A DNA stretch of 64,000 nt, counting the filler, from Collodictyon triciliatum (taxonomy: Eukaryota): the NCBI GenBank assembly GCA_043381765.1. It is 18 parts of 18 records of this genome, joined end to end, with 100 filler letters (N's around TTAATTAATTAA, not from the genome) between each part and the next. Parts side by side here need not be neighbours in the genome. Positions count along the whole stretch, not along the records: positions 17,952 to 21,408 come from JBHJMP010007299.1; 17 more parts are not named here. One strand, written 5' to 3'. The position numbers and the translations under genes are program-made. Of the stretch, positions 3,467 to 42,617 are shown piece by piece; position 1 is the stretch's first letter, and each line of letters begins with the position of its first letter. The notes under the pieces were generated by a model. That model was not told the origin of the DNA and searched no databases. It saw nothing but the letters and a program-made list of their open reading frames with translations.

Positions 3467-3567
3467 NNNNNNNNNNNNNNNNNNNNNNNNNNNNNNNNNN
3501 NNNNNNNNNNTTAATTAATTAANNNNNNNNNNNNNNNNNNNNNNNNNNNNNNNNNNNNNNNNNNNNA
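3467..3567. other. Artificial contig spacer (N-run, TTAATTAATTAA, N-run); recurs about every 3.5 kb through the window
   Basis: The same 12-mer, giving stops in all six frames and flanked by N runs, occurs at ~3511, 7070, 10779, 14338, 17896, 21453, 25009, 28563, 32116, 35668, 39220, 42769, 46318, 49868, 53417, 56964 and 60512. Confidence 0.98.
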
Positions 3568-3614
3568 AGCGCATAAGATAAAAGACAGCGTAATTCAAGA
3601 TAAAAAAAAAAAAA

Positions 3615-3699
<85 letters not shown>

Positions 3700-3950
3700 A
3701 ACGAAAAGAAATGAAAAGAGAAAATTTTTTTCCTTTATTCGATTCAAAATGAAAAGAGAAATGAAAAGAAAAGAAAAAGAAAAGAAAAGAAAAAGAAAAG
3801 AAAAAGAAAAGAAAAGAAAAACAAAAAACAAATAACACGGGCAAGCCCAACAATCAAGACAGCTGGTAAGGAAACACCACCAACTCGGATCTATATCAAC
3901 CAGGCGGAAGTGCGAGAGAGAGAGAGAGCTAGAGCTAGATAGAAAGACAA

Positions 3951-4893
3951 ATGGCTGAGCAGCGCGTCTCCACCTTGATCATCGGAGCCGGAATGGCGGG
4001 CGTAACCACGGCGTACAAACTGGTGCGAACGCACGGACACAAAGCAACGCGCCCAGACCTGCTGATTCTGGAGGGACGCGATCGCGCAGGAGGCCGCATG
4101 CACACGCGCTTCGACTTTGGGGCAGACGGAAAAGGCATCATCGACTGCGGGGCGAGCTGGCTGCACACGCCGCGGGAAGAGCTCGGGCGCAATCCACTGC
4201 ATCAGGTAGCAGAGGAGCTCGGGATCCAACTCTCCGAGGATGACGGGCTGTCGGGAGATCTGGACCACATCTACGACGGGGTGCGGGGCGAGTTCATCCC
4301 GGCCGAGTTTGTGGGCCACGCCTTCGAGTGGCTGCTGCGGATCGTGGACTACGTGGACTCTACGTTCTCGGGCAAGACGAAGGGCGCGGCAAACCCGTCT
4401 GTGGCCGACGCCGTCCAGCCGCTCGTGGCGCACTGGCTCAGTCTCGGCCCCGACGGCGCGCCTGCGCACTCACCCGCCGCCCGGCCCGACCCTGCCTGGC
4501 CCGAGCGCCCCGACCCGATCGATCTGCCCGAGGGCTGGACGTGGCCCGACTTCATCGCCACCATGCGCCGCCTCATGCGCTGGAATCTGCGCGTCATGGA
4601 GCAGATCGACTCTGCCGTCCTCACCCGCATCTCTGCCGCCCAGTGGGACGCCATCACATTCATCTCCGACGAGGACCGCCTCGTTCCCGGCGGATACATC
4701 CAGTACATCACCCGCATGTCGGCCTTTTTCCCGCAGGCCATTGAGTTCAACAAGGTGTGTGCGATTTGTGTGTGATTTATGTGTGATTTGCGTGTCCTAC
4801 ACTGGGTTGTGTCGTCGCACCTATCCTCATCTGTCTGTTCTTTGGTTCTCTGCTTTTGTCTGGTCACTATTATTTCTATCTCTGTTACCGCCA

Positions 4894-4981
<88 letters not shown>

Positions 4982-6438
4982 TATAAGGTTGTTTGTTTCC
5001 CGGAGCATATGATTCTGAGTCGATAATGGGTAGATAGGTGTGCTGAATCCCAATAAATTCGTATCAATAGATCGTCACCTCTGTGGAGACAAATCCGGGT
5101 GCAGTTGATGGATACAAGGTTGTGGTTCGCACTTCGGATGGGGCTGTCTATCACGCCCAGCGTGTGGTGGTGACTGTCCCGTTGGGGGTTTTAAAGGCGC
5201 AAAAGGTTATACAATGACACAAACGAACGAAGGCCTATTTTAATCGACCTATAAATCCACAACCTAAGCACGTGCACACACATAAATATACATATATATT
5301 CTTCATATACCCACTTGTTCTTTTTCCTTTTTTCTTCTTCTTACTCTTACTCTTACTCTTACTCTTACTATTTGCCATTCTCTATCTCATGCATGACCTG
5401 ACTGCGAATATTTCTGCATAGATTCGATTCGAACCCCCTCTGCCTCAGGCCAAACAATTAGCTATCCAACGCATCGGGTATGGTCTGCTTGATAAGGTCT
5501 TTGTCGAGTTTCCGAAGCAGTTTTGGTCGGAAGATATGAGAGTGTTTGGATATCTGCACGACGGTCCTCTTGATTTGCCTTACACGATGAACTATGGTCA
5601 TTTGAACGGCCGCCCCACCCTCCTCTTCCTTATCAGCTGTGACTACGCAGAGCATGCAGAGACAGTTCCGGTTGAGGAAGTTGTCAAGTCCATCCTGGCC
5701 ATCCTCCGAAAATCCTTCGGGGCAGAAAATGTGATTCTTGTTTCACAAATTCAGCGGTCATAGCCCTCTAAACAACTTATATATGTTAAGTTATCCTAGT
5801 TGAGGACCGCATCAAGCCCACTGCAACCGAACATGACTCTAATTTCATGGTACGCACCTAGGTTCCCGAGCCTGTTTCCTATCATATGACAAGATGGAGA
5901 AGCGATCCCTTGGCCTTGGGGTCGTACAGTTACATCCCGCCAGACTCCAGTTTGGATGACTGCGCAGAGCTTTTCAGGCCTATCGGCCGGTAAGAACGAG
6001 ATGAGCCTCAATGATAGCTGTCGTTACCCCAGCAAACAATATTATATAAAACACTACAGAGTTTATACAATTTAATTCAACTGCATAATACGTATGCATA
6101 GAAATTGATATCACCCTACTTTCAAAAATTGAAGAATAAGGATATTCAAAATATATCGGCATAGCAAAGAATGAAAATTCTATGCGCATAATTGCCACTC
6201 TTCTCTCTTTGTGTATTATTATTATTATTCTTATTATTATTCTTATTATTATCATCATCATCACCATCATCACCATCACCATCACCATCAACGTAACATT
6301 TCCTTTAGAGAAATCTACTTCGCCGGAGAGGCTGCCAACGGGGCGGGATATGGCACAGTCCACGGGGCGTACTGGTCCGGGGTAGAAGCTGCCAACGAGA
6401 TTGCCAAGGGACTGAGTCTGCCACCCCCAAAGTTGTAG
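3951..6438 (+). CDS. Flavin-containing amine oxidase (polyamine oxidase/LSD1-type fold); 5 exons
   Basis: IIGAGMAG dinucleotide-binding motif, LEGRDRAGGR, DCGASWLH, VVVTVPLGVLK, TRWRSDPLALGSYS, YFAGEA...GTVHGAYWSG. Exons ~3951-4755, 5071-5205, 5422-5730, 5862-5988, 6309-6438. Confidence 0.92.
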
Positions 6439-6858
6439 AAACCCCCCGCAAGGACACCGGGCGTGCTCCCAGTCCCCCGGAGTTGTTGTCGTCGCCACGC
6501 ACGAGGTTTAAGCAAACGCATCCAAAACTTGAATTCACGGCAGAGCACCAACCGCCATCAACTCCCGGTATTGAAATCCCTATGGAATAAACAGACACAA
6601 TGACGTCGATCTTTGGCCGAGTGGAGCAAAGGGATACTTTATTGTGGTGTGAAGAGAAGTCTTATCCTTCAGAGCTTTTCTTTCTTTTTTCTTAAGGCGG
6701 ATGAAAGTATGATGGGAAAGATGTTTAAATTCATGCTTCTTTCTCGATTTCACTTTCTCAGGGTAGAGTCAAACACACGAAGGGAATGGTGAAGGAGGCA
6801 TAACGGTGCGTGATTGGGGGATGTTGCACGGAGGAGTGATGGCCTTGCTGCCGAATAA

Positions 6859-7025
6859 TTATATGGGCATCTCGAAGGAGACCTTGATGGACAGGCTGCG
6901 GGCCATCTCGTTGATCTGGGCCATGCGGACCGCCTTGATGGCTGCATCGTCGAGGTCGGTGGCGCTGATCATCTTGAGGCCGCTCTCCTCAATGATGCGG
7001 GCTCCTTCAGTGCGGTTGGTGCCTG
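6859..7025 (-). CDS. Succinyl-CoA ligase beta subunit, C-terminal fragment (truncated by contig end)
   Basis: GTNRTEGARIIEESGLKMISATDLDDAAIKAVRMAQINEMARSLSIKVSFEMPI* matches the SCS-beta C-terminus (GTN...G..I...SGL......LD.AA), with an ADP-forming-type extension. Confidence 0.85.
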
Positions 7026-7125
7026 NNNNNNNNNNNNNNNNNNNNNNNNNNNNNNNNNNNNNNNNNNNNTTAATTAATTAANNNNNNNNNNNNNNNNNNN
7101 NNNNNNNNNNNNNNNNNNNNNNNNN

Positions 7126-7510: not shown

Positions 7511-9635
7511 ATCAACCAAAATTGCAATTATCAGACATCTATTGTCTGTATTTAATACATATATCCTGATTCAGCGCACCAGTTCGAAATCACAAGCACA
7601 AAAATATCTTCAGGCGTTGTAGAGGGAAAAAAATCGGGTGCTTTATAGTTGAATCAAAAGGATATTCTCTCATTTGTGTATGAAATGTTGAAACCATATT
7701 GAAATGATAAAGATACATGCATCATATTGGTAAAAAAAAAAAAAGAGGTATTTTAGGTGGGCAAATAAAGAGTATTTTATTCTATTTTGCGCACGTTTTT
7801 TTTTTTGAAGGAAAGTAGCACGTCAAGCACAAACACTTATTTATCTAGGATTTCGGGGGCTATGACACTAGTTTTTTCAAAAGTATACATATAGAGGTGT
7901 ATATATGTTTTTATATGTGCTTGTATATGATGCAGATGTCAATTAATCCTCACAACACGTCGGGAAAAATGCACCAGTGCTCTCCTATTTTGATTGGGAT
8001 GCAAGCGTGGAGAGCTCAAATTCATTTTTGATACCAAGCATGCATCCTGCTATTGCACCATGTTTCCCTGAACGCACCATGGAAAAGAATCTGGAACGTT
8101 CGTAAGACTACGACTATTTTCGTTCGATTTTTTTCCTTAGCTTCTGTAAAAGAAAGTAATTGAAACCAATCACATATCTGTTGGGCGATATATNNNNNNN
8201 NNNNNNNNNNNNNNNNNNNNNNNNNNNNNNNNNNNNNNNNNNNNNNNNNNNNNNNNNNNNNNNNNNNNNNNNNNNNNNNNNNNNNNNNNNNNNNNNNNNN
8301 NNNNNNNNNNNNNNNNNNNNNNNNNNNNNNNNNNNNNNNNNNNNNNNNNNNNNNNNNNNNNNNNNNNNNNNNNNNNNNNNNNNNNNNNNNNNNNNNNNNN
8401 NNNNNNNNNNNNNNNNNNNNNNNNNNNNNNNNNNNNNNNNNNNNNNNNNNNNNNNNNNNNNNNNNNNNNNNNNNNNNNNNNNNNNNNNNNNNNNNNNNNN
8501 NNNNNNNNNNNNNNNNNNNNNNNNNNNNNNNNNNNNNNNNNNNNNNNNNNNNNNNNNNNNNNNNNNNNNNNNNNNNNNNNNNNNNNNNNNNNNNNNNNNN
8601 NNNNNNNNNNNNNNNNNNNNNNNNNNNNNNNNNNNNNNNNNNNNNNNNNNNNNNNNNNNNNNNNNNNNNNNNNNNNNNNNNNNNNNNNNNNNNNNNNNNN
8701 NNNNNNNNNNNNNNNNNNNNNNNNNNNNNNNNNNNNNNNNNNNNNNNNNNNNNNNNNNNNNNNNNNNNNNNNNNNNNNNNNNNNNNNNNNNNNNNNNNNN
8801 NNNNNNNNNNNNNNNNNNNNNNNNNNNNNNNNNNNNNNNNNNNNAAAAAAAAAAAGCAATTTACTAATGGTATTTTTATGTATTCAAATAAGAGGAAAAA
8901 TGTATATATTTATTCTAGAAGATATTCCAAAAGTTGGGAAATAAACGAAATGTACGATTGCTAGACCTGATATATATGTATTACCTTTATTAATTAAATT
9001 GAGGATTCCAGTCTATCAGGCTCTGGGCACCTTAACAAACTGATTTTTATCCTAATCCCCTTTGTATGCCGGATTAAGCATTTTTCAGAGCTATTTAACC
9101 CTAAAGAGCAATTCTTTTCAATCAATATACTAAAAAAAAAAAAAAAACACACGGTGAGTGCATAGGCTGCCGCCTTTTTTGTATAGAAAAAAATATTTTC
9201 CAAGTTCTGGTAAAATTTCAAATATCCATTTCCATACAGACAAAATTTCTACAATTATTGTCTTTTTCAGATGTAGGTGCCTTAGGTAATCGTGAATGCA
9301 GTAGGTAAATGTTCGAAGAAAAATCAGAAGACCATGCTGAAGAGACTGATATTGCCATATGTTTATCGTAATATGCGAAAAAGAGATATTGTTTCATGTG
9401 ATGGGAGTAGAGCAAGATTATGAATATCGGTAAAGCTAAAAGTTACATTTGGATATTCATTTGCTCAATGAGCTGAAAAGTCATCTTCATATTTCAGAAA
9501 CATCAGAATTGTACAAGGAACGAAGGCCACCACTTCCCGAAAGAACCCTGCGTCGAGAGGCTTGTAGAATAGCTGGAGCATAGAGATGGTGGGAAGTGCG
9601 ACATGAATAATCTTAGGAGTACATCCAAGGAACTG

Positions 9636-10734: not shown

Positions 10735-11722
10735 NNNNNNNNNNNNNNNNNNNNNNNNNNNNNNNNNNNNNNNNNNNNTTAATTAATTAANNNNNNNNNN
10801 NNNNNNNNNNNNNNNNNNNNNNNNNNNNNNNNNNAGCTTGAAACTCCACACACCGATGACAGTCCGAGCAAGCAGAAGCGTATGTTTCTAAAACCACAAA
10901 CGCGTATCCATACTCCGGTTAAGCAAAGTCCACTGCCGGCTACGCATGGCTCCGAAACCAGGGGATGGTCAAGCGCCGCTTCCGATAATGCCAGACAGAT
11001 AAAGGTGTATCGCTTTTTGTCTGAGTCGCCCAGCAAGAAACGCAAGGAAAGTGACTCTTTGTCCTCTCAAAAGACTTATCCAGTGGAATGAAATAGGATG
11101 TAAACCTTGTCTAAGATAGATGGTTGAATGGACTCGCCGGAATCGATTCGAGAAGTAACTGCCATGTGCGTACTTTCATACACCCGACAACTTTATCCGG
11201 TCTTCTGCCAGTCTCGAATACAACCAGAAATCGCATTAGAGCTGATTCACCACGGGTAGAATAGTCTGCGTGTGAGAACACTTTCTCTCCTTTCTATCTT
11301 GTCTTTTTCTTTTTTTCCTTCCACCCAAAACACAAAAAACCCAACCACAAAATCCGAAGGATTCCACTGTCTCTTCCACAGCTCATTTCTTGTCCTAGAG
11401 GCGAAGGCGGTTACCTCGGCTTTGCTTCATCATAAATTGAAAATTTTAACGAGAAATGAAAATCTAGTGATATTGAAAATTGACTGAATATAGGCTACAA
11501 AAAACACTACCGACTGATGTTTTAAACATATTTCAGCCAGGCTGATACGTCAATAGTTAGCTTCACAAATCCCATTTTACTCTGTAAATAGTATCTTTTC
11601 ATGGATTTCGATACCAAACTAAAAATTTGATATCCGATTCTTAAGGACAAGCTTTTATAGATGACTTATCCTGTCTCTTAAGATTTAATTTTGGTTTATT
11701 ATCACAGACGCCCCTTGAGTAA

Positions 11723-12829
11723 TTATCTGCACAATGACGAAACATTCTTAGGGGACATGATAACGACCTCAAAATTTTCAAGGCAGATATTGTGGACTCT
11801 TTCTTGGTCAAGGCATGTCAATGATTTAGTACCTACACTGCACTTTGAACCTTGAAACTCTGGCCTACAAATTCCAAGGCGGTATTTGTACCAATTTTTT
11901 GACAGATTGGAGTGCCGATTTGCAAAGAATTGTTTTGAAGACGCAAGTATGTAACCATCTACAATCCCATCAGCGTATATACCCATGTCATTCAAAGAGA
12001 GATTAAATGTAACGGCAGAGTATTTTTCAATAATGGATATGCCCAGTTCTTTATCTTGCCAATCAGTTGCAAGGAAAACTGATTTTGTTACATTCTTATT
12101 AAGTTTGGCATCGATTATCCCTTCTATCTCGATGGCTGACATCTTGCAAGCTCCTTCCCATCGCCGTAAATGTATAGCTGCATACGGTTTCACAAGATTG
12201 TATTTAATCCAGTTTTCGGCAATTGTTATCAACTTATCAACAGGCTTAAAATATGTTAAGAGTCTTAAATATTCTGAATCAGGGATACTCCATCGGTACG
12301 GGACACCAACTTGAAGATGAATAGCAGTTTCATTTTTCAATGTTCTTTGAAGCCAACTGTGCGTAAACTTTTTGTCAAATCTTATGTTTGGAATCTCAGT
12401 CCTTAGTTTTACATCTAGGCTACCCAATGAAGGGAAAATTTTCGAATAGTATTCATCGACGAAAATAAAGCTTGGATATTTCTCTAAAAATAACTCTTTG
12501 TTATAATATTTCTCAAAAGGAACATTCCCTAAGTCAGTAATACTTGTCCCGTTCACTAAATGTTCATTCCACCCAGGAAACACTAAAACTCTATTTAGAG
12601 ACTTACTCCAGTACATGGCACTTATCATGGTGATAAGTTGATTATTGAGCCTGCCCATTAAATTGTTGTACACAAAGTATTTATTGAGAGTCAAGTGTGA
12701 GTTTGTATCAGACAATCTCAGGTGCGAATCAGTTAAAATTATGTTTCCTCTCAACTTACCATCCTGAATCCTTGCAAAGCCCAACTGAGGTAGAAGCAAG
12801 AAAAAGACCAAACGGGGTAGTTTGTCCAT
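11723..12829 (-). CDS. GDP-fucose O-fucosyltransferase-like protein (POFUT/O-FucT fold), apparently intronless, with signal peptide
   Basis: 368-aa ORF with hydrophobic N-terminus. MGRLNNQLITMISAMYWSKSLNRVLVFPGW (compare POFUT1 GRFGNQ...AK.LNRTL..P.W), YAAIHLRR, VFLATD and DGYILASSKQFFANRHSNLS. Confidence 0.85.
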   Translation of the reverse strand: MDKLPRLVFFLLLPQLGFARIQDGKLRGNIILTDSHLRLSDTNSHLTLNKYFVYNNLMGRLNNQLITMISAMYWSKSLNRVLVFPGWNEHLVNGTSITDLGNVPFEKYYNKELFLEKYPSFIFVDEYYSKIFPSLGSLDVKLRTEIPNIRFDKKFTHSWLQRTLKNETAIHLQVGVPYRWSIPDSEYLRLLTYFKPVDKLITIAENWIKYNLVKPYAAIHLRRWEGACKMSAIEIEGIIDAKLNKNVTKSVFLATDWQDKELGISIIEKYSAVTFNLSLNDMGIYADGIVDGYILASSKQFFANRHSNLSKNWYKYRLGICRPEFQGSKCSVGTKSLTCLDQERVHNICLENFEVVIMSPKNVSSLCR

Positions 12830-14393
12830 ATTTGTGGATCCTAATTACTGTCTTTGATGCGAGGAGTTTTTCCTAACTTAAAAGAAATTACCCCAATTTA
12901 TATACCTTTGCCAATTTTTTTTAATTACCAAGAAAGGTATTGTATAAATAAATTTATATTTGTGTGGTGTTAATATCTATGTGATATGAGTTTCAATGTG
13001 ACAACTTGTTTTTTAAAGATATAAGACTTGATGGAGCAAATGAAATAAACATCACGTAGAAAATTTATGTATGTTACTGTGTATTATATATTCAAACCTT
13101 TCCCCCATAAAGGTGAAGAGGTGCACGTTGAGAACAATTGACCAATTTATGACGAAAAAAATCATAAAGATGATAAACATACCACCCATGTAATTCAAAG
13201 TGCTTAAAATATTTTCCTACCAAAAGAAATTTTTAAAAATTTAGAAAGTATTTTGTATGCCTTTAAAGAATATGATTTTATTCCATTAATTTTTATGCTT
13301 TTGATAATAAATGATTCATTTGATATTTTTAAGGTAATATAATATCTACATAAAACTAAAAAACCATTTGTTTCGCATAGACATGTATTAAAAATGATTA
13401 AAAAAATCAGACTTTGAATCGAATAAAGGAAAAAATTAACTAAAAAAAAATTTAACTGCGCATACAATTCATGAAAAGAGAAAAATCGGCGGAGTTGAGT
13501 GAGAGATATAATAAAAAAAAATTCGCATCACAGGAAAAGCTTTCACGCTCAACAATCAGATCCATCGAATGAAATATCCCCCCCATTATCATTTAACTCG
13601 TACATTTCAAACCAAATTGACACATTTTTTTGGTAAAGCTATATTTAATCCTGTTTCAAACGTACCCATTCTTTTTTGTGGATACTCCAAAAGGTACAAG
13701 TTGATAGGAATGCAATACTTTGTGAACGATAGTAACAAAAAAAATCAATATGCGTTGCATAAAATTTCATATATATTCCATCAGTTAAACACTTCTCTTA
13801 TTAAAAATATGTGCATTTTTCACATGAATAACGTATTATTTGTAAAGAAAAGTGAAACAAAATTAAATTTTCCTTGTTTTGTTTCATCGATTTTTATATA
13901 ACCTGGAAAAATGCTCAGAATTTAATGAAGCGGTAAGTGTTTTTTTTTTTAATTCTGAAAATCTTATCTGTTGAGCCCGTCTCAACAATCTTTCATTCAA
14001 CCATCAGGCAAGTAGTTCCAAAGTAGGTGGGATGTGTGGGAGATAGAAAAAAGAGAAACAGGGATAAAGATAAAAGGAAAAAAAAAAGAGAGGTCCTTGA
14101 GGCTTGATAAGAGACGCATGGATTTCTTTTGGGGACGCGTGATAATGTCCAGCGAGCATGAGAAAAAAAGGGACGGGTGATATATATTGGATGGAGGAGG
14201 GGGAATACTGCTTTGATGGCGCAAGCTGTCGAAAAGGATGGTGAAAAGAGAAGTGAGGTTCGTTTGATAAGCACTAGGTCGAGTGCAAAGAGANNNNNNN
14301 NNNNNNNNNNNNNNNNNNNNNNNNNNNNNNNNNNNNNTTAATTAATTAANNNNNNNNNNNNNNNNNNNNNNNNNNNNNNNNNNNNNNNNNNNN

Positions 14394-17951: not shown

Positions 17952-18015
<64 letters not shown>

Positions 18016-18689
18016 AGAAGAAAACAAAACAACAAAAAGTAAACAAAAAGAAATGTAGTGAGCAGGTGAATGTCAAAGAAAAAACCGAGACTAATCGCAC
18101 TGTGGAGCCAATAAACCAACACAACAAAACAACAAAACACTTCGCCGAATAATCAAACAACTGCTTATGCAACAGACAACAGTGCAGTCAGTCAAGATAC
18201 CGGGAGCCTTCAAGTAAGTCGATGAATAAAATATAAGACAGAATAAAGGCTCACAGAGTGAGTGCATGTATCGTTACAGCCCACCATCATCATGGGCGCA
18301 AAAAGAAAAAGAAAAGATTGTGTCCACGAAGCTGACATTCCAACATTTAACTAGGCGAAAAAAAAATAATATGAATGAATCAAATAAAAGCAAACACCTC
18401 AGTAGCACAATGATAACCAACACATAATCATTCTTTTCGCCTGTGATACATTCTCAAGGTCGATTATCAAACAAACAGGAGATGTGTCACGTTTATCGGC
18501 AACTGCTGGAAAGGTTAGGTTTTTTTTTTATTCTTTTCATCCAGCCTCTGCGAACAAGCTAGCAATCATCTGCACTCATTCAGTTTGGCTGTCATCGGGC
18601 TAGTACTCACTTGTACTTGTTTTGTGGAAAGGGTGGTGTATGGGTGGATGAATGGGTTGTTTAGATGGGGTGGGTGACAGACGAGCCAC

Positions 18690-21408
18690 TTATCGGGTCA
18701 GCATCTTCTGTGCAATCATCATTTGCTTTTCTGAAAGCTTCGTATGAGGATGGTCTGCGCCATACACAGTCTTGAATATTGTGTTGGCTTTTTGGTACAT
18801 GTCCACAGCCTCTTGGTATTTTTTCTGGCTCTTGTAAACCACTCCAATATTCCCATATGTATTGGCAACACTAGAGTGATTTTCTCCAAACACTTTCAGC
18901 TGAATTTCCAATGATTTGTGGTAGTATTCCAGGGCTTTGTCATTCCTATTAAATAATAAGTTAATGAAAGATAAATATAAATACATAATAAATAAAAAAA
19001 ATACTTCCTGAGCTGACGAAAAATTTCTCCAATGTTATTATATGAAGTGGCAACATCAGGGTGTACTTCTCCAAACACTTTCAGCTTAATTTCCAGTGAT
19101 TTGTGAAAGTACTCCAGTGCTTTTTCATTACTATTAAATTATAAGTTAATGAAAGGATAAGCATAAATATAGTCAAATAACAGATACTTTCCAATATTCT
19201 TGTAAACGGTTCCAATATTATTATATGATTTAGCAACATCAGGGTGGACTTCTCCAAACACTTTCAGTTGAATTTCAAATGATTTGTGGTAGTACTCCAG
19301 AGCTTTATCATGTCTATTAAATAATAAGTTAATGAAATGATAAACATAAATATAAAAAAAATAAAAGATACTTTCCAAGATTATTGTAAACTATCCCAAT
19401 ATTATTATATGACGTGGCAACATCAGGGTGGACTTCTCCAAACACCTTCAGCTTAATTTCCAGTGATTTGTGAAAGTACTCCAGTGCTTTTTCATTACTA
19501 TTAAATTATAAGCCAAAATAAATGATAAATATAACACATAATCAAATAAATCATACTTTCTGAGCTGACGAAAAACTTCTCCAATGTTATTATACGATTT
19601 GGCAACATTTGGGTGTACTTCTCCAAACACTTTCAGCTTAATTTCCAATGATTTGTGGTAGTACTCCAGAGCTTTGTCATTCCTATTAAATAATAAGTTA
19701 ACGAAAGATAAACATTAAAAGATAGTCAAATAAAAGATACTTTCCAAGGTTATTGTAAACGGCTCCAATATTATTATATGATTTAGCAACATCAGGGTGG
19801 ACTTCTCCAAACACTTTCAGCTTAATTTCCAATGATTTGTGGTAGTACTCCAGAGCTTTATCATTTCTATTAAATAATAAGTTAATGAAAGATAAACATT
19901 AAAAGATAGTCTAATAAAAGATACTTTCCAAGGTTATTGTAAACGGCTCCAATATTATTATATGATTTGGCAACATCAGGGCGGACTTCTCCAAAGACTT
20001 TCAGTTGAATTTCCAATGATTTGTGGTAGTACTCCAGAGCTTTATCATGCCTATTAAATAATAAGTTAACGAAGGATAAATATAAATACATAATCGAATA
20101 ATAAAGGAAAAAAATAAATACATAATCGAATAAAACATACTTTCCAAGGTTATTGTAAACTATCCCAATGTTATTATATGATTTGGCAACATCAGGGTGT
20201 ACTTCTCCAAACACTTTCAGTTGAATTTCCAATGATTTGTGGTGGTACTCCAGAGCTTTGTCATTCCTATTAAATAATGAGTTAAAGAAAGGATAAATAT
20301 AAATACATAATCAAATAAAACATACTTTCCGAGGTCATCGTAAACTACCCCAATGTTATTATATGAAGCGGCAACATTTGGGTGAATTTCTCCAAACACT
20401 TTCAGCTTAATTTTCAATGATTTGTGGTAGTACTCAAGGGCTTTTTCATTCCTATTAAACGATAAGTCAAATAAATGATAAATATAACACATAATCGAAT
20501 AAAACATACTTTCCAAGGTCACTGTAAACCAACCCTAGAAAATTCATATTTTTGCTATTCGAACCTAATAAAAAAGCCAACCAAAAGTTAGCAACACACC
20601 CATAAAATCCAAATCAACTGACCAAACCCTCATCCGTCTCAACAGAAATGCGATGCTCAAGAATCGGAATCAAAAAGGCATTCTCTTGAATTTGTCGGAA
20701 GTAACTGACCAATGCAGAGCCAGCAGGATTCAATTGCTGTTGTACATATCCATTAATATAAATTCATTGTTGATACATATAATTGAGTTTTATCACCTTG
20801 GCCAACTCACAATAGACAACTTTGTGGTCATAACCGTTCTTATTCAGCGCTCTCCAGCATTCATAAAACTCGAAGCGATAGTTGTCATCCAGCATGCTCA
20901 TAACAGCCTAAAAAAGACTATATTACAACACATGCCACAGTAAAAAATAATAATGAATTCCACCAACCTTTTCATTCTTAATAAAATCCACTAGTGTATT
21001 ATATTCGCTCGAAATCCTCGGATTGTGGCATATTTCGGCAACAACACTCTTGTCTTCAGTGTCAGAGCCGTATTCACCCAGCAGCCACAATCCGTATTCA
21101 CGTGCTTTACTTGTTGTGTATGCTTCATCCTTAAAGTATCTCTCTTTGATGGATTGTGTCAGCAGCTGGTGAGAGAACGCGTATCTGTGATAAGATATTG
21201 TGATAAGCAATGACGACCATTAATAAACATATGAATACCCATATCACCTCCCATTCCTCACAAAGAGCGAATCCAGCAAGACAAAAAGAAATGATTTCCT
21301 AAAATAAAAAATACGATTTATCAAAAGTGACACATATGAATCATATGACAGGAATCGATATACCAGGTTGCATGGTTGATTTGCATGTGAATTTGGTGAA
21401 GTCGATGC
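18690..21408 (-). CDS. NPHP3/NACHT-associated protein, C-terminal part with tandem 42-aa TPR repeats (kinesin-light-chain-type); 5' part missing
   Basis: KSFLFVLLDSLFVRNG/RYAFSHQLL region shared with the NACHT gene in the next contig, then eight 126-nt TPR exons (19005-20451) and a terminal exon 18690-18945 ending ...GADHPHTKLSEKQMMIAQKMLTR*. Confidence 0.88.
19005..20451 (-). repeat. Tandem ~185-bp exon+intron repeat, 8 copies
   Basis: Near-identical 126-nt exons separated by similar ~57-60-nt GT-AG introns (one ~90 nt). Confidence 0.95.
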
Positions 21409-21508: not shown

Positions 21509-24500
21509 CATAGTTCTGGTACGATGTTGCGACAAGAGGATGCTCGTTTCCGACTTTCTTTTGGCGAATTTCCATGGCCTTTGTGTATTCAACCAGAGCT
21601 TGCTCATTCCTATGATAAAAAATTGATCAGCATACCTATATCTACAAAATAATATAAGAAATGAAAATTAATAAAAGTGTTACTTTGACTGCTTCGCATA
21701 GATATCTCCGAAGCGGTCATGAGATTGGGCTACTTGCAAGTCGTTCTCGCCTAGTTGTTTGATTCTCAGTTCCAACGATTTCTTGTATTCATCGAGGGCT
21801 TCATCAATTCTATTTCATGAGCAAATCAGAATAATTCTTATTTTTGAAACGCTATAATATAATATTTTTAAAGTTGAAAGCGAGCCTTACTTATCCTGTT
21901 GCTGGTAGATAGTTCCCATCTCTTCATGAATGATGGCAATACGCAGGGTATAATCTTCATTTTTTTCCAATGAATTAAGGCACTTCTTGTAGTAGACCAT
22001 GGATTCAGACCAGCTGTTTTATTTTAGAAATTGAACATTATATTTAATAATCATGTCTTAATCGATAATGAGGAATATACATTTTTTTTTTTTACTTTTG
22101 GAGGTTCTTGTAGACACGACCAAGATTCAGGTGATCAGCAGCCTTTGAATCTATAAGATAATAAGGCTCAATTTCTACATACATAATTATCATCAGAATG
22201 TGGATTCTTCAAAGAAATTTTATGAACCGCATACCTTCTTTTTGATGCCTTCCAAGACGCACATTCAGAACAGACAACAAGAACGAGTTCTCAAAAGACT
22301 CCAAGAAAAATCCAACCAGCAGGTCTCCCACTTTATCCAAAGACTGAAAAAATAAAAGGTAAATCATGATTGATAATTACATTTTGTAAGTTGTAACCTT
22401 CAAAAATTAAAATAAAACAATAAATTACCTTCGCCAAGCTTCCATAGACATCTTTGTAGTTTGCCACCCCACTTGCGTTGATTGCTCTCCAGCATATAAA
22501 GAACTCGTAGCGATAGCGGCCACCAAGCATGATACTGATAACCTATAAAATTTTCAAAAATTAATAAGTGAAAATCGTCTCATTATGACTGAAATACTCG
22601 AATAAAAAATAAAAAATAATAATAAAATTACATGTTTTTGCTTCATGTATTCGACAAGCAAGTCAAACGAACTGCCCTTCAGAAGCTGGTAGCATATCTC
22701 AGCAGCAAGCTCCTCATCCACATCAACAGCCTCAGAATACTGGCCAAACAGCCATTTTCCGTATTTTTCATGGGTTTTTCCATCTCCTGGTTTTCAGAGA
22801 AGTAGACCTTTTCGGTGGTCTCCAGCAGCAGCTGGTGGAAGTACATGTATCTATGATAGACAATAATTAGCTTTATATCGAAAATAAAATTATACCAAAA
22901 AAGCGCCGATTAACGAACAAAAGGATAGTGAAATAAAACCAACCTTCCATTACGAACGAAAAGCGACTCGATGAGGATAAAGAAGAAGGATTTCCTATTT
23001 TAATGAATAAAAGATAAGTTAAAGAAAAAAGAAAATGAGAAAGGGTAAACCCTATTCATTCTATTAAAATTCAAGAGTAAGAAAACCATTCAGCAAGCTC
23101 GAATCCTGCGCCAATCGCGTCTTTCATGTACTTGTCCAGGTCACCTTCACTCAGGCCGATGCGGGAGACAAAGAGAACCTTCATCGAGAGGGAGACATAC
23201 CCGACCTTCATTGTCTCTTTTCCATCAGTTGTGGCGACTGTAATAAAAAACAATCAACAAATGTGGCAATTATAATTATTTACTTTTTTGTGAAATATGA
23301 AACCAATACTCACCTTTCCTGTCAAACTTCAGTTGCCAGCGCTTGATAATGAGAGTGTAAAGCTCAATGACACCATCAGTTGAAAGCAGAGTAAACAGTT
23401 CATCATCAAGCTTCTCATAAACTCCAAAGACCCTGACTTCATCCAGAATGATGCGGAGATAGAGCGGATGGCCTATAAAAATATCAGATAAGAATAACTA
23501 AATCATTGCTTGGAAAATTAAATCTTTAATCAAAATATATACTCTTATTAAAAAAATGTCTCACCAGTATCTTCAAAGTCTGCCAGAATCATTCCAACTT
23601 GCTTTTCGTTCAGGGTCTTGTCATAGCGGATGAGGAAGGATTCGACACCATCCTTAATTTCGCCCTCGGTCAATTTGGCGACAGGAATCGGATCCAGTCC
23701 ACTTTGCTTGGCAGACTTATGACAGATATTTTAATTAATCTTCCACTCAAATCATTTTTATGCAGAATACAAACATATCTCAAATTAATTAAATGATGAA
23801 TACCGCGCAAGATTCATGGGTATGAATGGTCGACACAACCATCGCAACATTAGCTGGCGTTTCTTTGGGCAACCAGGTCAGCAGATGCGGAGCTGGCGTT
23901 CCTTGCGACGGGTGGATTTGGTTGATGGCATCGATGAGAAAGACAAACTTCTCGTCCCTATAATACATAGTTTATTACCAATTTTTTATTCGATTCTAGT
24001 ATTTTAATTTTGATTTTATAATTAAAAAATACAAAAAAAATTGAAATATTACTTGTTTTTCTCCTGAATCATCTTTAGCAAGCCCTGGAGTCCCTCTTTT
24101 TCGTATTCTGGTGGCAAAATAAAATAAATGCATGAATAATTATGCGATGTTTGAATTAAAAATATAAAAAAATAAAATAAAATACAATACCAGCTTCTTG
24201 CTTCTTCTGCTCGACAAAGTTGGCAGAGTTTGTGACCAAAGTCCAGAAGCGAATCGAGACGCTAAAATAAAACAAATATTTTTAGAAAAAACTATATAAT
24301 ATATTTATATCTATAAAAACAAAAAGAAACAAATAACCTTTCCACGTAGTTGCTGAGGTTGGTGCATCTAACAAAATGAAAAAAGACATGCAGCCCAGGA
24401 TGCTTCAGCTCTTCGAGGTCTCTCGCTGTAGCAGCCATGAGCGACGACTTTCCAATCCCAGACTCGGCAGTAAGAACGATGATTTTGGATTTCTCGGTGC

Positions 24501-24927
24501 TCAGCTGATTCATGGCCTAATTAAAAAAAATTAAAAGATAAGAAAAGAATAGCAAAAGATATTATTGTCATTTTTAATTCAACTGCTCTTTATCTTACTT
24601 GCTCCGTGATTGTCTTGAGAAGCTCCTTTCTTCCACCAAACCCGGCCAGTCGATGCATCTTGAACTGGTGCTGCGCTTGGTCTTCAGGGTCTCTCACCTA
24701 TGATATAATTATGTCAACAAAATGTAAATGAAATATACATCACCAATCAATACTGATCAATATAAATCTATAAAAATTATAAAAATACCGTTTGATTCCC
24801 AAAGTCACGCTCGATGGCGTGGGTGAGATGGTAGGTCACAAAGTCCGAATACTCCTTCGCTCCTTTGTAGACAACATGCCCGAACTTGGCCTTGACTTTC
24901 CCTTTGAGCTCGTCCTGCCTCTTACGC
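21509..24927 (-). CDS. NACHT/STAND NTPase (NPHP3/TEP1-like) with C-terminal TPRs; multi-exon, both ends truncated
   Basis: Walker A IIVLTAESGIGKSSLMA, VFFHFVRCT, Walker B LVFLIDAINQI, LLTWLPKETPANVAMVVST, HPLYLRIILDEVRVFG, VLFVSRIGLSE, followed by TPR exons (IDEALDEYKKSLELRIKQLGENDLQVAQSHDRFG). Confidence 0.85.
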
Positions 24928-25234
24928 TAAAATAATACATTAAAATATATGTCAAATAAATCAANNNNNNNNNNNNNNNNNNNNNNNNNNNNNNNNNNNN
25001 NNNNNNNNTTAATTAATTAANNNNNNNNNNNNNNNNNNNNNNNNNNNNNNNNNNNNNNNNNNNNAAAAATAAAAAACAAAAAATAAAAAACAAAAAATAA
25101 AAAACAAAAAATAAAAAACAAAAAACAAAAAACAAAAAACAAAAAACAAAAAACAAAAAACCATAAAAACAAAGAACAAAAAACGACGAAGCACAGGAAT
25201 ATATAAACCCAGCCCCCTCCTCCAGCACCGCCAC

Positions 25235-28200
25235 ATGGGGAATTCGCAAGCCAAGCCCAGTCCAATTCCTGAGGAAGCCCAACGCCGGGCCGACGAGGCA
25301 CGCGCCAAGCAGTTTGATCGCTTGGACCTCAGCCAGCTGGATCTGACCGGCCTGCCCGATCGCGTGCACCTGCCAAGCGTGCGGATCTTTGTCGTGCAGC
25401 GCAATCGCCTGACCCATCTGAGCGCCGTCTTCTGCCAGCGCTGGACGCAGCTGACAACTCTGGATCTGAGCCACAATCTCATCTCTCTGCTTCCCGCCGA
25501 CTTTGTGCGCCTGACGCAGCTTCAGCAGCTCGTGCTGACCGGCAACGAGCTGCAGGATCTCGACGAGAATGCGCTGCTTCTGCTGGGCCAGTTGCGCAGA
25601 CTCGAGGCTGGCAACAATCGCCTCGCGCGCATCCCAGCAAGTCTGTTCCGCTGCACAGCGCTGGAGCTCGCCGTCTTCCGGGGCAATCAAGTGCAGCTCT
25701 TGCCTTTACCCATGCAGATGCAGATGCAGATGCAACCGCCATCGTCCCGGCCCGCGGCGCATCCGACAGATATTTGCCGCCTGGCCCATCTCACACGCCT
25801 CGACATAGCTCGCAACCGCATCGAAGTGCTGCCGCTGGCCATGCTCGATGCAATGCCCGTATTGGCCGTTCTCCAGGCCTCCGCCAACCTGATTCACACT
25901 ATTGCAGCCGAACCGCACAATGCGACTTCTTTGCTCTCCGCCACGAGTCACCAGCCACTCAGCGCAACCACAGATGCGTCGCTCATTTCGCCGCGGAAGC
26001 TGGGCTCGTTCAAACCTTCACCCGAGTCACCGCGGCCATCACAGTTACAGAGCACACAGCATAACCCCCATGTATCTGCATCCTCCGAGCCACCCTCATT
26101 TCCAACTTCACTGCAGTCGCTGGATCTGCAAGAGAATGCACTTCTATCCATGCCAGAGTTTACGCTGTTAATGAAAAACATCGTCACTCTGAATCTCTCC
26201 AGAAACAGACTCACCGCATTGCCATCTCCTTTGTCTCAGCTAGTGTCGCTGGAGTCACTCATCCTCTCGTTCAACAGGCTCTTTGCCTTGCCTAAGGAAA
26301 TCAGCGTCCTCACCAGTCTCGATGAGCTTGATGTATCAAACAACATCTTGCTTTCGCTTCCCAGCGCCATCGGTGCTATGAGATGTCTTCGAAAGCTGCA
26401 GGCCCAACGCAATCAGATATCCGTGCTCAGTCCTTCCATTTGGATGCTGCCGTCTATCCGTGTCATTAATCTCACGTCAAACAAGATATCTGCTCTCCCA
26501 CCAATCAACGCTGATCAGGCACCCATTACGGGATGCTTGGCCGAATTGTATCTGAGTGATAACAATATCACCGAATTTCCGACGTCTCTGATCCACCTTT
26601 CCAGTTTGACTGCACTTGGGCTGTCATATAATCAGATTCCATCCCTGCCTGAAGGTATCGATAAGCTCGCCTACCTGCGATCACTGTTTCTGTCTGGTGA
26701 GCACTTCAATTTCCACTTATATGTGCAAGTTTCTTTATCTTTTTCTTTTCGTAACATCTTATCTCGTTACCAATTTCGTGACATTGTGTTTTCTTCATTT
26801 CGGTGAATTGAAATATGACGAATCAACTAGGAAATCAACTGTGGGATTTACCAGAGAAACTGAAGGACATCTTCGGACTCAGTTGGATTGTAAGACGGAT
26901 TACTTTCGTTTTTTAATTGTTGTTATCGTTGCTATCGTTTCTTCCCCCCTTTAATGTTACAAATTCAAACAAATTTAATGAGTGGAAGCACGATGTGTTC
27001 AGTAGCAGTTTTACACAGCTGCAAATAGAACGCCTTATAATAATGAGAATATCCCATCAAACATGTTTCGCGCTAAGGTCTAACTTTTTCCCCCTATTTT
27101 CCCTCAGTATATCAACCACAACCGTCTACGCGATCTTCCTTCTGTAATTTCGGATATGCCCCTGGAGATTATTGACTTCACCGGAATCGATGCTGCATCC
27201 GTTAAGTATACCAAAAACCCTTTATTCGATATGAAAGATTTCATTTCCAGAACCATTTCGTACATCTTGATAGATGTTTGTTAAAAGCCTCTATGCAACC
27301 ATCCTAATTTTAATTGTATTCACAGAGAAACACTACCCAGTGCCGATGCTTCGTGTGAGTATACTGAATCGAATTTGTGAAAACACAAAAGAAAGTCCAG
27401 TGCTTTCTTAAAAAAAAACAATCGAATAATTAGAGACATTTTACAATGAAAAGTTGAAATTTCATTCTTGACGTTATATTTCTGCATTGTTCTTGTCATT
27501 TCACAGCTTTCAGTGGCGTTGGGCGTCGGCGGTCAGATGGGTTCCGAGTGCAACCAAAAATAACGCAGAGCATACGTTTTAAGTAAGTTTTTAGAACGAA
27601 GCATCGCCATGTAACAAACGAAATTTCTGATTTCATCTTTGATTTTTACCTGTTCCTAAATTGTATTTGCCTCCAGTGTTGGTTATGCTGAAATGATAGG
27701 CCGAAGACCTGCGATGGAAGATTCGATGGCTATTCGAGGAAACTTTCGAAATTCAAATGGTAGAATAAGCTACTTCATAATATAATTTTTCCATGAAATA
27801 AAAAAAATACTTAATTTCTTTGTGGCAGAGCATACACTCATTGAATCTGTATCGATATATAATCTGTGTAATGGATATATATATTCAATGCAGCCCATCC
27901 TTGTTGTTTGACTCAATCCCTTAATATTATCATTGTGTTTTCCCGAACCATTTAGCCGAGGATTTCTTTGGCGTCTTTGATGGTCATGGTACAGGAGGAA
28001 AAGGAAAGGTCAATAACTATGAGTCTTTTCTTTCTTTTTCTCCTTTTTTTTTTCATCGTAAATCATTTCTCTTATACTTCTCCTTGATGGAAAGGCATAA
28101 TTATTAGTCAAGAAGTGAATCTTGCCTGTAAATAATCAATAACAAGATGTCGTTGATACTTCAGATTGCTGCAGACTACATCGCATACCACATTCCCAGA

Positions 28201-28518: not shown

Positions 28519-28732
28519 NNNNNNNNNNNNNNNNNNNNNNNNNNNNNNNNNNNNNNNNNNNNTTAATTAATTAANNNNNNNNNNNNNNNNNNNNNNNNNN
28601 NNNNNNNNNNNNNNNNNNAGAAAAGAGAGAAAAGAGAGAAAAGAGAGAAAAGAGAGAAAAGAGAGAAAAGAGAGAAAAGAGAGAAAAGAGAGAAAAGAGA
28701 GAAAAGAGAGAAAAGAGAGAAATATATAGCGT

Positions 28733-31798
<3,066 letters not shown>

Positions 31799-37199: not shown

Positions 37200-38287
37200 T
37201 CAACAAACATATACACACGAATAAATGACATTGAATATCTCTTGAATCAGTCTTTTAATGTTCATGGCAAAATCGGTCATCCCAGCACTTCATCCACCAC
37301 GCGTCTGGCGTTCAGAGCCAAAGAAGCCGAAGCTGCTTCCCAGCATGCAGGATAGGAAAATAATCAGTCTGGCCGATGTGTGTGCCATTATTACCCCACG
37401 CGAAATGATTTTGACACCTGAAGTCAGACTTACCGCATGAAACAAACCATATCTAAAATGCGATCTAGAAATATTAATTATGTGCATAATTTACGCAGGC
37501 ACACAACGCTAGCTTTGTCTCACCTGCTTTGTGCAGCAGACTCGGGATGCAAAAACTGGAACCGGACTTGCGCTTGGGAAGTCGCTCGCCATCACACTGA
37601 TTGCTGCATTGCTCATGTCACATCTTTCTCTTCTCTAAATAGCCCATTATATCTAGCCACCCATCGTGTGTATAATAAAAAGAATTCAAAAAAATCTTCG
37701 TTCTCTTGTCCTTGGCTTATGGAGACCATGAATGAGCCTGGCGCTGTTTGGGATGACACCGTGTTCGGGTCTGCATCACCAAAAGCGGATACCGTCCGAG
37801 CCGCCATGGCTATCGGAAGCGCTTTTATACATTTCTGGATATTATATACAATTACAATATATATAAGAAATTTTCCAAAATATTTGACAGAGTATTGAAT
37901 TGATTATATAATATATTGAAAATGATTTGAAAAGTGTGGTAGAATTGAGGAGGTGACAGATCCTAGATTACAGATTTTTTTTGCTAGCTTTCGTGCGTAT
38001 AGTCCAGTTCATGCCATTAATTTTATTTAAAAGAGCTGTTGGTTCCTCTATTACAAACACGTGGATAATCGACGTTTGACTCCGTCCCTCACGAACCTCC
38101 CCGATGTTTACCGCTCCACGAAATTCATCAACGCTGACATTTGGCTCCCTGGGGCTCTTTGATCGGGCGCTGTCAGAAAATACAGCGTCAACTCATTCCC
38201 AACCCAATATCGCTCTTCTTCTATGCTCCTTTCTTGTTTTGTTTTCCTTTTTTTCAGTAGCTTTTCCTAGGTTTCCATTCTGCTGCA

Positions 38288-42497: not shown

Positions 42498-42617
42498 ACT
42501 TGCGTCAACGCCTACAAAACAAAGTCAGTGCAGTGAGCGACAATTACAAAAATTCTAGTTCTTTGTCAGAACAATAATTCTAGATTAGATAATCAATGCC
42601 ATTACAAAAAAAAAAAA

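Follow-up and report, generated by a model that had tools for sequence, protein, structure and literature searches.

The stretch of DNA analysed here, called the window below, comprises 64,000 nucleotides from Collodictyon triciliatum (NCBI GenBank assembly GCA_043381765.1) and is, according to the list of N-runs, a chain of separate ~3.45-kb contigs joined by spacers of 44 N, TTAATTAATTAA and 44 N. These contigs are unlinked, and gene neighbourhood across spacers is therefore not usable; a P-loop gene that had been considered as a linked neighbour of the repeat array was rejected as such, as it lies on the other side of a spacer on a separate contig. This P-loop gene is a paralogue of the array gene, and both are cut at their 5' ends (Table 1). 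When spliced, the 15 exons of the array gene give a single open frame of 619 codons. Its first visible exon is homologous to a paralogue exon ending in AEW, the K-S-F-L-F-..-V-R-N-G-R motif of its second exon recurs in the paralogue and in the Diphylleia rotans products P0005, P0008 and P0016, its third exon has 35% identity to the paralogue, and the counterpart of its sixth exon in the paralogue ends at 22096.

Table 1. Features of the array contig and of the contig carrying the paralogue (positions in the window; the coordinates of the paralogue TPR exons were read by ruler from the sequence)
Feature	Position	Strand	Sites and remarks
Array contig, 3,457 nt	17952..21408	.	Spacers at both bounds; poly-A run 17952-18053
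First visible exon	21364..21408	-	GT donor; in frame with downstream exons; truncated by contig end at 21408
Exon 2, 51 nt	21248..21298	-	AG and GT sites; family motif K-S-F-L-F-..-V-R-N-G-R conserved
Exon 3, 217 nt, helical region, post-NACHT in relatives	20968..21184	-	AG and GT sites; P0016 match
Exon 4, 111 nt	20797..20907	-	AG and GT sites, in frame; within P0016 alignment
Exon 5, 118 nt	20619..20736	-	AG and GT sites, in frame
Exon 6, 55 nt, helix A of first TPR only	20510..20564	-	AG and GT sites, in frame
Eight 126-nt exons with phase-2 introns, 184-bp units	19005..20451	-	Exon = helix B, linker and next helix A
126-nt exons, singly	20451-20326, 20266-20141, 20050-19925, 19866-19741, 19682-19557, 19497-19372, 19313-19188, 19130-19005	-	AG acceptor and GT donor at every exon
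Sole long intron, 90 nt	20051..20140	-	Internal tandem duplication of ~32 nt; Tandem Repeats Finder period 32 at 20072-20133
Terminal exon	18690..18945	-	Ninth repeat, one more complete TPR, capping helix, stop codon 18692-18690; frame confirmed
Paralogue contig	21509..24964	-	P-loop exon 24516-24338; Walker-B exon 23957-23804
Paralogue diverged TPR exons	22013-21891 (123 nt), 21809-21684 (126 nt), 21609-21509 (cut)	-	Same phase-2 register

The core of the gene is a run of eight consecutive exons on the minus strand, all exactly 126 nt (42 aa) long, each flanked by GT-AG introns that are all of phase 2, the frame beginning at exon base 2. The earlier note described these features correctly, the strand having been added here, and its statement that any exon could be gained, lost or skipped in frame follows from the symmetry of the exons (126 nt, phase 2 on both sides). 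The introns, with lengths of 58, 59, 90, 58, 58, 59, 58, 57 and 59 nt, had been called near-identical, which holds for one pair (97%) only; pairwise identities range from 77 to 97% (mean p-distance 0.158). Tandem Repeats Finder reports a period of 184 (6.6 copies, score 1559) and one of 368 (score 1815), placing the repetition far beyond chance. The second period hints at a two-unit, 368-bp higher-order repeat, but pairwise distances between units lend it no support. Two further descriptions needed amendment. Each exon does correspond to one 42-residue period, but not to one TPR in the Pfam register, since it is out of step with the motif and an intron splits each motif between helix A and helix B; and the array of eight is extended by the ninth repeat of the terminal exon and by the upstream exon that holds helix A only.

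Pfam scans, carried out exon by exon on contiguous translations, match the terminal exon to TPR_10 (60.1 bits; cut-off 27.5) and TPR_12 (58.5 bits; cut-off 30.1), and single internal exons of the array also reach TPR_12 (31.9 and 35.4 bits; cut-off 30.1). The best solved relatives of the terminal exon in the PDB are structures of kinesin light chain 1 (7ai4, E 4.7e-24; 3nf1, E 9.9e-24), with alignments that recur with a 42-residue period. Judged by these matches, the repeats are kinesin-light-chain-type 42-residue TPRs. In protein searches, the terminal exon found only two distant TPR proteins (34-41% identity) and the helical exon of the gene no close relatives; a 409-residue glycosyltransferase ORF on another contig of the window likewise gave no match.

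What kind of protein carries these repeats? The 5' part of the array gene (21297-20587) aligns to residues 563-738 of P0016 (tblastn, chained E 4e-55), a 1,081-residue D. rotans product that is the longest isoform of P0009, and P0009 itself matches Pfam NACHT (35.4 bits; cut-off 26.7) and TPR_12 (204.5 bits). TPR_12 is found in P0010 as well as in P0009, while P0008 has DUF4062 at its N-terminus, which the N-terminal stretch of P0016 resembles. D. rotans transcripts are the closest relatives (40-74% identity per exon), in keeping with the earlier attribution of the gene to a protist. In the paralogue, the P-loop exon scanned alone stays below the cut-offs (in brackets) for NPHP3_N (22.6 bits; 24.8), NACHT (21.5; 26.7) and NB-ARC (13.7; 23.5), and the Walker-B exon scanned alone gives 12.4 bits for NACHT; the relatives of the P-loop exon, in turn, exceed the cut-off for NACHT, NPHP3_N or nSTAND1. 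At E <= 0.001, NB-ARC is absent from D. rotans P0005, P0008, P0009 and P0010, and also from P0006 among the best 25 of 56 families.

That the array gene begins with sequence homologous to what follows NACHT in these relatives thus supports placing it in a DUF4062-NACHT-TPR family, and, to judge from the encoded protein, it belongs to a protist family of NACHT-TPR (NLR-like) proteins with the array at its end. The label “NLR-like”, which the earlier note had already used, therefore stands by virtue of this homology, with a proviso: no NTPase domain is visible on the array contig, which ends at 21408, downstream of the expected place of that domain, so that for the array gene the label rests on paralogy, the NTPase part being expected beyond the contig end. 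Several members of the family are diverged and vary in architecture, including DUF4062 and WD40 additions. In the literature searched, Diphylleia and NACHT occur together in a single paper, which concerns a plant, and the family therefore seems undescribed in the protist lineage. The position and phase of the intron are common to the array gene and the paralogue, whose repeats have diverged.

Within the array, by comparison, the eight 41-residue exon translations are on average 81% identical (range 68-93%), against a mean of 31% for the repeats of P0016, which indicates recent amplification or homogenisation of the array. The chimeric likenesses between units that the earlier note had pointed out all hold when bases are counted: units 6 and 8 have one difference in their first 60 exon bases (6-11 against other internal units), units 5 and 8 have two in their last 28 bases (9-15 against other units), and units 2 and 6 have one in their last 28 bases. 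Tests for recombination give signals between units. The PHI test is significant (p = 0.0002-0.0004), 153 of 378 site pairs are incompatible with a minimum number of recombination events (Rm) of 9, and the longest-shared-run test on units 6 and 8 gives p = 0.0005 (0.018 corrected for 36 pairs). Maximum chi-square places breakpoints after exon bases 84-88 with p = 0.0001-0.0003 for triplets picked post hoc, or ~0.03-0.08 once corrected for the 252 possible triplets. Recombination between repeats is therefore statistically supported. The best breakpoints by maximum chi-square lie within exons and not in introns, and thus ordinary homologous exchange is favoured over intron-mediated exon shuffling.

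A mosaic of this kind may also arise in assembly: the TPR units would then be genuine, but how many there are, how they are ordered and which of them are chimeric would result from merged short reads of near-identical units or of paralogous arrays. The ~3.45-kb contigs, ending in microsatellites or homopolymers, are those of a highly fragmented assembly; the paralogue has an apparent frameshift within an A-run that suggests sequencing error; and units share exact stretches of 66, 59, 57 and 56 nt, the longest of them linking units 6 and 8 where the two resemble each other. Yet the longest exact repeat is 66 nt, and units are told apart by 7-30 of their 126 exon bases as well as by their introns, so that reads of at least 100 nt can place them. 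Across the whole array, moreover, a single frame stays open and the splice sites are intact, and the mosaic tracts carry 1-3 private bases, which fits old conversion and not the reuse of identical reads. We consider an assembly artefact unlikely, although part of the mosaic or of the copy number may still stem from assembly.

Amino acid change in the array is concentrated in one segment, as the earlier note had it: across nine repeats 21 of 41 columns are invariant, and variation clusters at the end of helix A. The groove-facing positions of a TPR (2, 5, 6, 9, 12 and 13; Magliery and Regan 2005) were fixed a priori from that source, before the site test. The mean pairwise residue difference at these positions is 0.476, compared to 0.195 overall (permutation p = 0.004), the enrichment being at positions 2, 9, 12 and 13, and they contain four of the five codons with at least three residues (hypergeometric p = 6.4e-4). 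The earlier note had asked whether variable sites line the concave groove, and by TPR position they are enriched there; as to selection, dN/dS comes to 0.26 for the whole repeat and to 0.30 for the groove codons, in which dS has reached saturation (1.3). Being below 1 in every site set measured, dN/dS gave no sign of positive or diversifying selection.

These values would also suit a protein that has nothing to do with immunity, namely a housekeeping adaptor resembling nephrocystin-3 or kinesin light chain, whose repeats would have been amplified neutrally, without any part in recognising variable ligands. A dN/dS below 1 fits conserved function, NPHP3_N and TPR_NPHP3 are among the best Pfam matches, and kinesin light chains are the closest solved structures, the best in the PDB being KLC1 and KLC2 of the same 42-residue TPR subtype (TPR_10 / TPR_12). 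In kinesin light chain and nephrocystin-3, the TPR domains are conserved scaffolds of low copy number, and their repeats have diverged. The array, unlike these, consists of near-copies of recent origin and belongs to a family with multiple members, and a diverged family with varied architectures (DUF4062, WD40) is typical of expanded STAND families and not of single-copy scaffolds. In addition, 81% repeat identity together with groove-focused change is the pattern described for the repeats of fungal NLRs (Dyrka et al. 2014, PMC4986451), and we regard a non-immune scaffold as improbable.

In light of the above, our preferred reading is that the array is probably a sensor domain at the C-terminus of a STAND protein of the NACHT type, formed through germline duplication of units and gene conversion. 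This putative sensor domain likely consists of ten kinesin-light-chain-type 42-residue TPRs. An old phase-2 intron of the family, lying between helix A and helix B, would have given one 126-nt exon per repeat period, and the 184-bp unit of exon plus tiny intron would then have multiplied recently in the germline as tandem copies, probably through unequal crossing-over or replication slippage. Gene conversion or unequal exchange may subsequently have moved short tracts from copy to copy, the breakpoints falling in the most conserved stretch of the exon, which encodes S-Y-N-N-I-G. Purifying selection would maintain the TPR scaffold, while the groove-facing stripe of helix A (positions 2, 9, 12 and 13) may gain or retain amino acid differences that could alter binding in the groove. 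By analogy with other STAND/NLR proteins, the product would sense a ligand and respond by NTPase-driven oligomerisation and signalling.

The exon-per-repeat design is already known from brown-algal receptor genes, to which the array gene adds a NACHT example. In Ectocarpus, NB-ARC-TPR genes have TPR domains made of 42-residue exons (Zambounis et al. 2012, PMC3341825), and as presented there they share with the array gene a STAND NTPase family, a C-terminal TPR array in which the 42-residue period equals one exon, an exon that seems to begin near the G-K-Y/N of helix B and to end with helix A, the possibility of in-frame change in exon number, and the proposed class of candidate immune receptors. 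From the motif printed in that paper (PMC3341825), the intron sites of the two seem to be 1-2 codons apart. The differences from Ectocarpus as described (PMC3341825) are that the NTPase here is NACHT-like (the paralogue fails the NB-ARC cut-off and its relatives pass that for NACHT), that the introns, at 57-90 nt, lack the inactivated TPR exons held by the Ectocarpus introns, that the units, introns included, are recent copies, and that the lineage is a different, AT-rich one.

Fungal NLRs have TPR, ANK or WD repeats with high internal conservation, and repeat-number polymorphism and positive selection have been shown for them (Dyrka et al. 2014, PMC4986451). According to that account, they resemble the array gene in combining NACHT or NB-ARC with TPRs of 42 residues (for which kinesin light chain 2 served as the model in the fungal case), in high within-gene repeat identity, in inter-repeat recombination, and in variable sites on the concave face. 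The array mean of 81% is near but below the fungal criterion of repeats more than 85% identical over at least 100 residues (PMC4986451). Unlike the fungal genes as described (PMC4986451), where no intron-per-repeat structure is mentioned, the array has a separate exon for each period, and positive selection was not found in it (groove dN/dS 0.30).

A third parallel is with the LRR-exon arrays reported in 2019 (PMC6564038), which likewise have exons of exact length, phase-2 introns, a junction codon linking neighbours, exon-plus-intron units visible as DNA repeats, and Ka/Ks values of purifying selection. Their expansion has been ascribed to unequal crossing-over (PMC6564038), as we propose here. 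Those arrays, as reported (PMC6564038), are of LRR and not TPR, with no STAND NTPase described, their introns measure ~230-260 nt against 57-90 nt, and their repeats go with a LINE-like element, none of which was seen on the array contig.

The earlier note went further in proposing a recombination- or splicing-diversified STAND-TPR sensor system. Of this, the family, the symmetric exons and the recombination stand; a programmed, somatic or splicing-based “system” does not. As hypothesised for the brown-algal genes, such a system would rearrange exon cassettes somatically or splice them alternatively, yielding many variants per locus. The eight symmetric exons, any subset of which is in frame, the recombination signal between units, the variation at groove positions, and the presence of family members on 2 of the 18 window contigs, which hints at a large family, are all compatible with it. 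However, the introns are too short for spare cassettes and hold neither spare nor inactivated exons, and tblastn found no further repeat copies on the array contig, none on the opposite strand, and none window-wide outside the two family contigs. The breakpoints lie in exons and not introns, dN/dS is below 1, and recombination signal sequences and associated enzymes were not seen on the array contig. Among six isoforms that D. rotans makes from a single related gene, moreover, none has lost a 42-residue unit internally; what is seen instead are ORFs ending at an intron site. Dedicated machinery for programmed or splicing-based diversification is unsupported, and we judge such a system very improbable.

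A milder version, which we offer as speculation and think unlikely, is that the interchangeable exons of a large protist DUF4062-NACHT-TPR family serve as cassettes in the germline, possibly also at the level of splicing, and that the helix-A segments lining the groove are re-sorted into new binding specificities by frequent unequal exchange, both inside an array and among paralogous ones. Were this true, exon-per-repeat receptor diversification would have arisen once more, independently of brown algae and ciliates, and in a deep, little-studied branch of eukaryotes. Other exon-per-repeat receptor cases are the NB-ARC-TPR and ROCO-LRR genes of brown algae and the 90-bp LRR exons of ciliates. 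On our preferred reading, the gene brings a further lineage, with a family of the NACHT and not the NB-ARC type, into the small set of eukaryotes with candidate intracellular receptors built of one exon per repeat, and its 184-bp units with tiny introns make it a compact test case for how arrays grow and are re-sorted.

A metagenome scan with the repeat alignment returned 73 loci, 75% being the top identity. No intron-per-repeat relative or regular ~184-nt spacing occurred among the 54 loci with at least two repeats, and any single spacing of 160-210 nt was confined to two of them; 245 of the 306 repeat spacings at the matching loci are of 126 nt.

The most economical account of this TPR array is tandem germline amplification of a 184-bp unit followed by short-tract exchange. 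The intron that separates helix A from helix B would be old in this family; in the array gene, an exon-intron unit of that length would have been amplified in tandem, and the amplified units would afterwards have swapped short tracts. Purifying selection would act on the TPR scaffold, with groove-lining residues differing from repeat to repeat, and, by analogy with other STAND proteins, ligand binding by the array may release an NTPase-driven assembly.

The eight 126-nt exons with phase-2 GT-AG introns described in the earlier note are borne out by the splice sites and by the reading frame: 15 exons, including five more upstream of the 55-nt exon, join into a single open frame of 619 codons whose 5' end is cut by the contig end. 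All 126-nt exons read from the second base, so that every intron is in phase 2, and the array introns are 77-97% identical to one another, the 90-nt intron containing an internal duplication of ~32 nt. The 184-bp unit scores 1559 in Tandem Repeats Finder. In Pfam scans done exon by exon on contiguous translations, the terminal exon matches TPR_10 (60.1 bits) and TPR_12 (58.5 bits), each over cut-off, and single internal exons match TPR_12 (31.9 and 35.4 bits); among solved structures, the repeats come closest to kinesin light chain 1 and 2 TPR domains (best E 4.7e-24). The reading of one exon per TPR holds for the period and fails for the register, as by Pfam each exon encodes helix B and linker of one TPR and then helix A of the next, with the intron at the junction codon (K or N) directly after helix A. 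A count by helix pairs gives ten TPRs and a capping helix in the product.

Features of the array gene, its paralogue and the other contigs, by position along the window
Feature	Position	Strand	Detail
Spacers	3467-3566, 7026-7125, 10735-10834 and so on, to 60468-60567		
Internal gap	8194-8844		651 N, inside one piece
Exon giving first helix A	20564-20510	minus	55 nt
Eight array exons	20451-20326 down to 19130-19005	minus	each exactly 126 nt; AG acceptor and GT donor at each
Array introns		minus	58, 59, 90, 58, 58, 59, 58, 57, 59 nt
Terminal exon	18945-18690	minus	ninth repeat at its start; stop 18692-18690
Paralogue P-loop exon	24516-24338	minus	NPHP3_N, NACHT and AAA matches weak, under cut-off (single exon scanned)
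Paralogue frame change near A-run	22766-22800	minus	exon homologous to 21184-20968
LRR protein	25235-26803	plus	LRR_8 1.9e-40
LRR protein	38261-38812	plus	LRR_8 6.6e-16
LRR protein	41940-42524	minus	LRR_8 2.3e-16
WD40-repeat exons	28619-29900	minus	WD40 7.5e-09; split by short microsatellite-bearing introns
GDP-fucose protein O-fucosyltransferase	11726-12844	minus	long intron-free ORF
Glycosyltransferase 61	47661-48887	plus	long intron-free ORF
Sulfotransferase family 2 member	61877-62785	plus	long intron-free ORF

The NTPase part of the array gene would fall past the contig end. A paralogue has a P-loop exon, to which NB-ARC matches more weakly than NPHP3_N, NACHT and AAA, and a Walker-B exon, and has a helical region and family motifs in common with the array gene; the two genes lie on different pieces (21509-24964 and 17952-21408, respectively), and their adjacency in the genome is not implied. 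Searched exhaustively, the P-loop exon gave 10 proteins at E <= 0.001; five are ORFs from the Diphylleia rotans transcriptome in EukProt. The paralogue is 36-74% identical per exon to the best D. rotans ORF, which points to a source organism related to D. rotans or to one with many paralogues. Over cut-off, Pfam finds NACHT, NPHP3_N or nSTAND1 in the D. rotans ORFs, with a STAND match together with TPR_12/TPR_10 in P0009 and P0010; P0008 has a DUF4062 match as well, and P0006 has further TPR and WD40 repeats. Residues 563-738 of P0016, a 1,081-residue isoform of P0009, align with the 5' portion of the array gene (21297-20587) at a chained E of 4e-55, and these residues lie between the NACHT domain and the TPRs. 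From this alignment and the Pfam matches of the family, we assign the array gene to a predicted DUF4062-NACHT-TPR STAND family, by homology rather than by a visible NTPase of its own. DUF4062, NACHT and TPR occur together in three papers of the searched literature, and of the two listed one deals with a ctenophore genome, the other with bacteria; a literature search returned no link between Diphylleia and NACHT, the sole co-mention concerning a plant. Two short predicted proteins, P0003 (81 aa, from a 2,665-nt JGI/IMG contig) and P0004 (71 aa, from a 582-nt NCBI contig), are 90% and 74% identical to the paralogue P-loop exon and run on at their ends into apparent intron sequence, which, as judged from sequence, shows that public metagenome/genome data include contigs from this organism or from a very near relative.

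The intron site is old and the array young. The site is present also in the diverged paralogue, whose TPR exons (123 nt, 126 nt and one cut exon) keep the phase-2 register of the array gene and whose repeats are strongly diverged. All three D. rotans ORFs that end inside the TPR region (P0005, P0014 and P0015) stop exactly at the junction-codon residue, the pattern that a retained phase-2 intron would be expected to give. Mean repeat-to-repeat identity is 81% in the array gene (range 68-93%) and 31% in P0016 (range 15-46%). In metagenome contigs, related arrays of 42-residue TPRs run without interruption: across the 54 loci with at least two repeats, 245 of 306 spacings equal 126 nt, and no locus has a regular period near 184 nt. 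Irregular spacings occur at two of the metagenome loci only, L003 (1,716 nt, G+C 0.38; 134/126/209) and L018 (168/135/126.../390), which might contain occasional introns in a related TPR array.

The mosaic likenesses that had been noticed by eye are reproduced by base counts. Units 6 and 8, said to share their 5' part, have a single mismatch in the first 60 exon bases (6-11 with other internal units) and have the last 12 intron bases in common; units 5 and 8, said to share a 3' end, have two mismatches in the last 28 bases (9-15 with other units), and units 2 and 6 have one there. The recombination test called for in the earlier note is positive, with a pairwise homoplasy index p of 0.0002-0.0004 (28 informative sites, three window sizes); incompatibility affects 153 of 378 site pairs, and no fewer than 9 recombination events are required. 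With each exon taken together with its upstream intron, a longest-shared-run test picks out units 6 and 8 (p = 0.0005, corrected 0.018 for 36 pairs), with units 3 and 4 at p = 0.003 (corrected 0.108). Maximum chi-square, for triplets selected after the data were seen from 252 possible, makes unit 8 a mosaic of units 6 and 5 (p = 0.0003) and unit 6 a mosaic of units 8 and 2 (p = 0.0001), with breakpoints after exon bases 84-88. These breakpoints sit in the invariant stretch coding S-Y-N-N-I-G, and the flanking introns travel with neither half of the mosaic units; hence the mosaic is a signature of gene conversion or unequal exchange in conserved coding DNA, not of intron-mediated exon shuffling. 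A programmed diversification system finds no support: introns of this size leave no room for hidden cassettes, the contig and the window hold no spare exons, the exchange points are exonic, and no repeat is skipped among isoforms of one related gene.

Residue change among the repeats is unevenly placed. Of 41 columns, 21 do not vary across all nine repeats; codon variability is greatest at helix A positions 2, 9, 12 and 13 (Pfam TPR_1 register), and positions 5 and 6 are invariant asparagines across the eight internal repeats. According to Magliery and Regan (PMC1261162), TPRs vary most at positions 2, 5, 9, 12, 13, 33 and 34, which are on the concave face, and HOP binds ligands via positions 2, 5, 6, 9, 12 and 13. 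The latter six, taken a priori as the groove set from this published numbering rather than from a model of the array protein, show a mean pairwise residue difference of 0.476 vs 0.195 for all 42 codons (permutation p = 0.004 for eight repeats, 0.001 for nine) and hold four of the five codons with at least three residues (p = 6.4e-4 and 0.013, respectively). Nei-Gojobori dN/dS is 0.26 overall, 0.20 in helix B plus linker, 0.32 in helix A and 0.30 in the groove set, where dS is saturated; these values indicate no adaptive change, and the nine repeats, short and recombining, are fewer than site-model tests need. Groove-set dN (0.39) exceeds the raw divergence of the intron core (p-distance 0.195) and is close to the dS of other codons (0.36), which fits relaxed or diversifying pressure at groove sites without proving it.

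Among known systems, the closest precedent is the Ectocarpus NB-ARC-TPR family, with TPR domains of 42-residue exons in 13 of 24 loci (PMC3341825). The array gene differs in its lineage, in its NACHT-like nucleotide-binding domain (assigned by homology) where Ectocarpus has NB-ARC, and in being without the intronic pseudo-exons of the Ectocarpus genes. Fungal NLRs with highly conserved TPR repeats have in common with it a KLC-type repeat, inter-repeat recombination and concave-face variation; their repeats meet an 85% identity criterion, which the array gene (mean 81%) falls narrowly under, and, unlike those of the array gene, are not described in the extract as one exon per repeat (PMC4986451). 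Tetrahymena LRR genes likewise have equal-length exons, phase-2 introns and a junction codon, and their exon arrays are ascribed to unequal crossing-over under purifying selection (PMC6564038).

Mis-assembly of the array is a live caveat: the assembly is highly fragmented, the units are linked by exact repeats up to 66 nt, and the paralogue has an apparent frameshift at an A-run, where two ORFs in different frames (22679-22909 and 22554-22793) overlap, which reflects either sequencing error or a pseudogene. The window holds 17 spacers of one identical form (44 N + TTAATTAATTAA + 44 N), 3,547-3,709 nt apart, and piece lengths drop almost steadily along it. This marks the window as separate contigs chained together, each ~3.45 kb and roughly size-sorted. 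Gene neighbourhood across the spacers is not real, and many pieces terminate in homopolymers or microsatellites.

Three other contigs encode LRR proteins, two of which start M-G-N-x-Q-A-K-P, an apparent myristoylation signal, and Collodictyon triciliatum may have a large LRR gene family as well. A word-index protein search found no relatives of the glycosyltransferase 61 ORF. The piece at 3567-7025 (especially 3891-5074) has a much higher G+C (0.51 at 4001-6000 vs ~0.35 elsewhere), with a flavin amine-oxidase-like ORF and overlapping long ORFs in several frames; it may have come from another source, or it may just be a gene rich in G+C.
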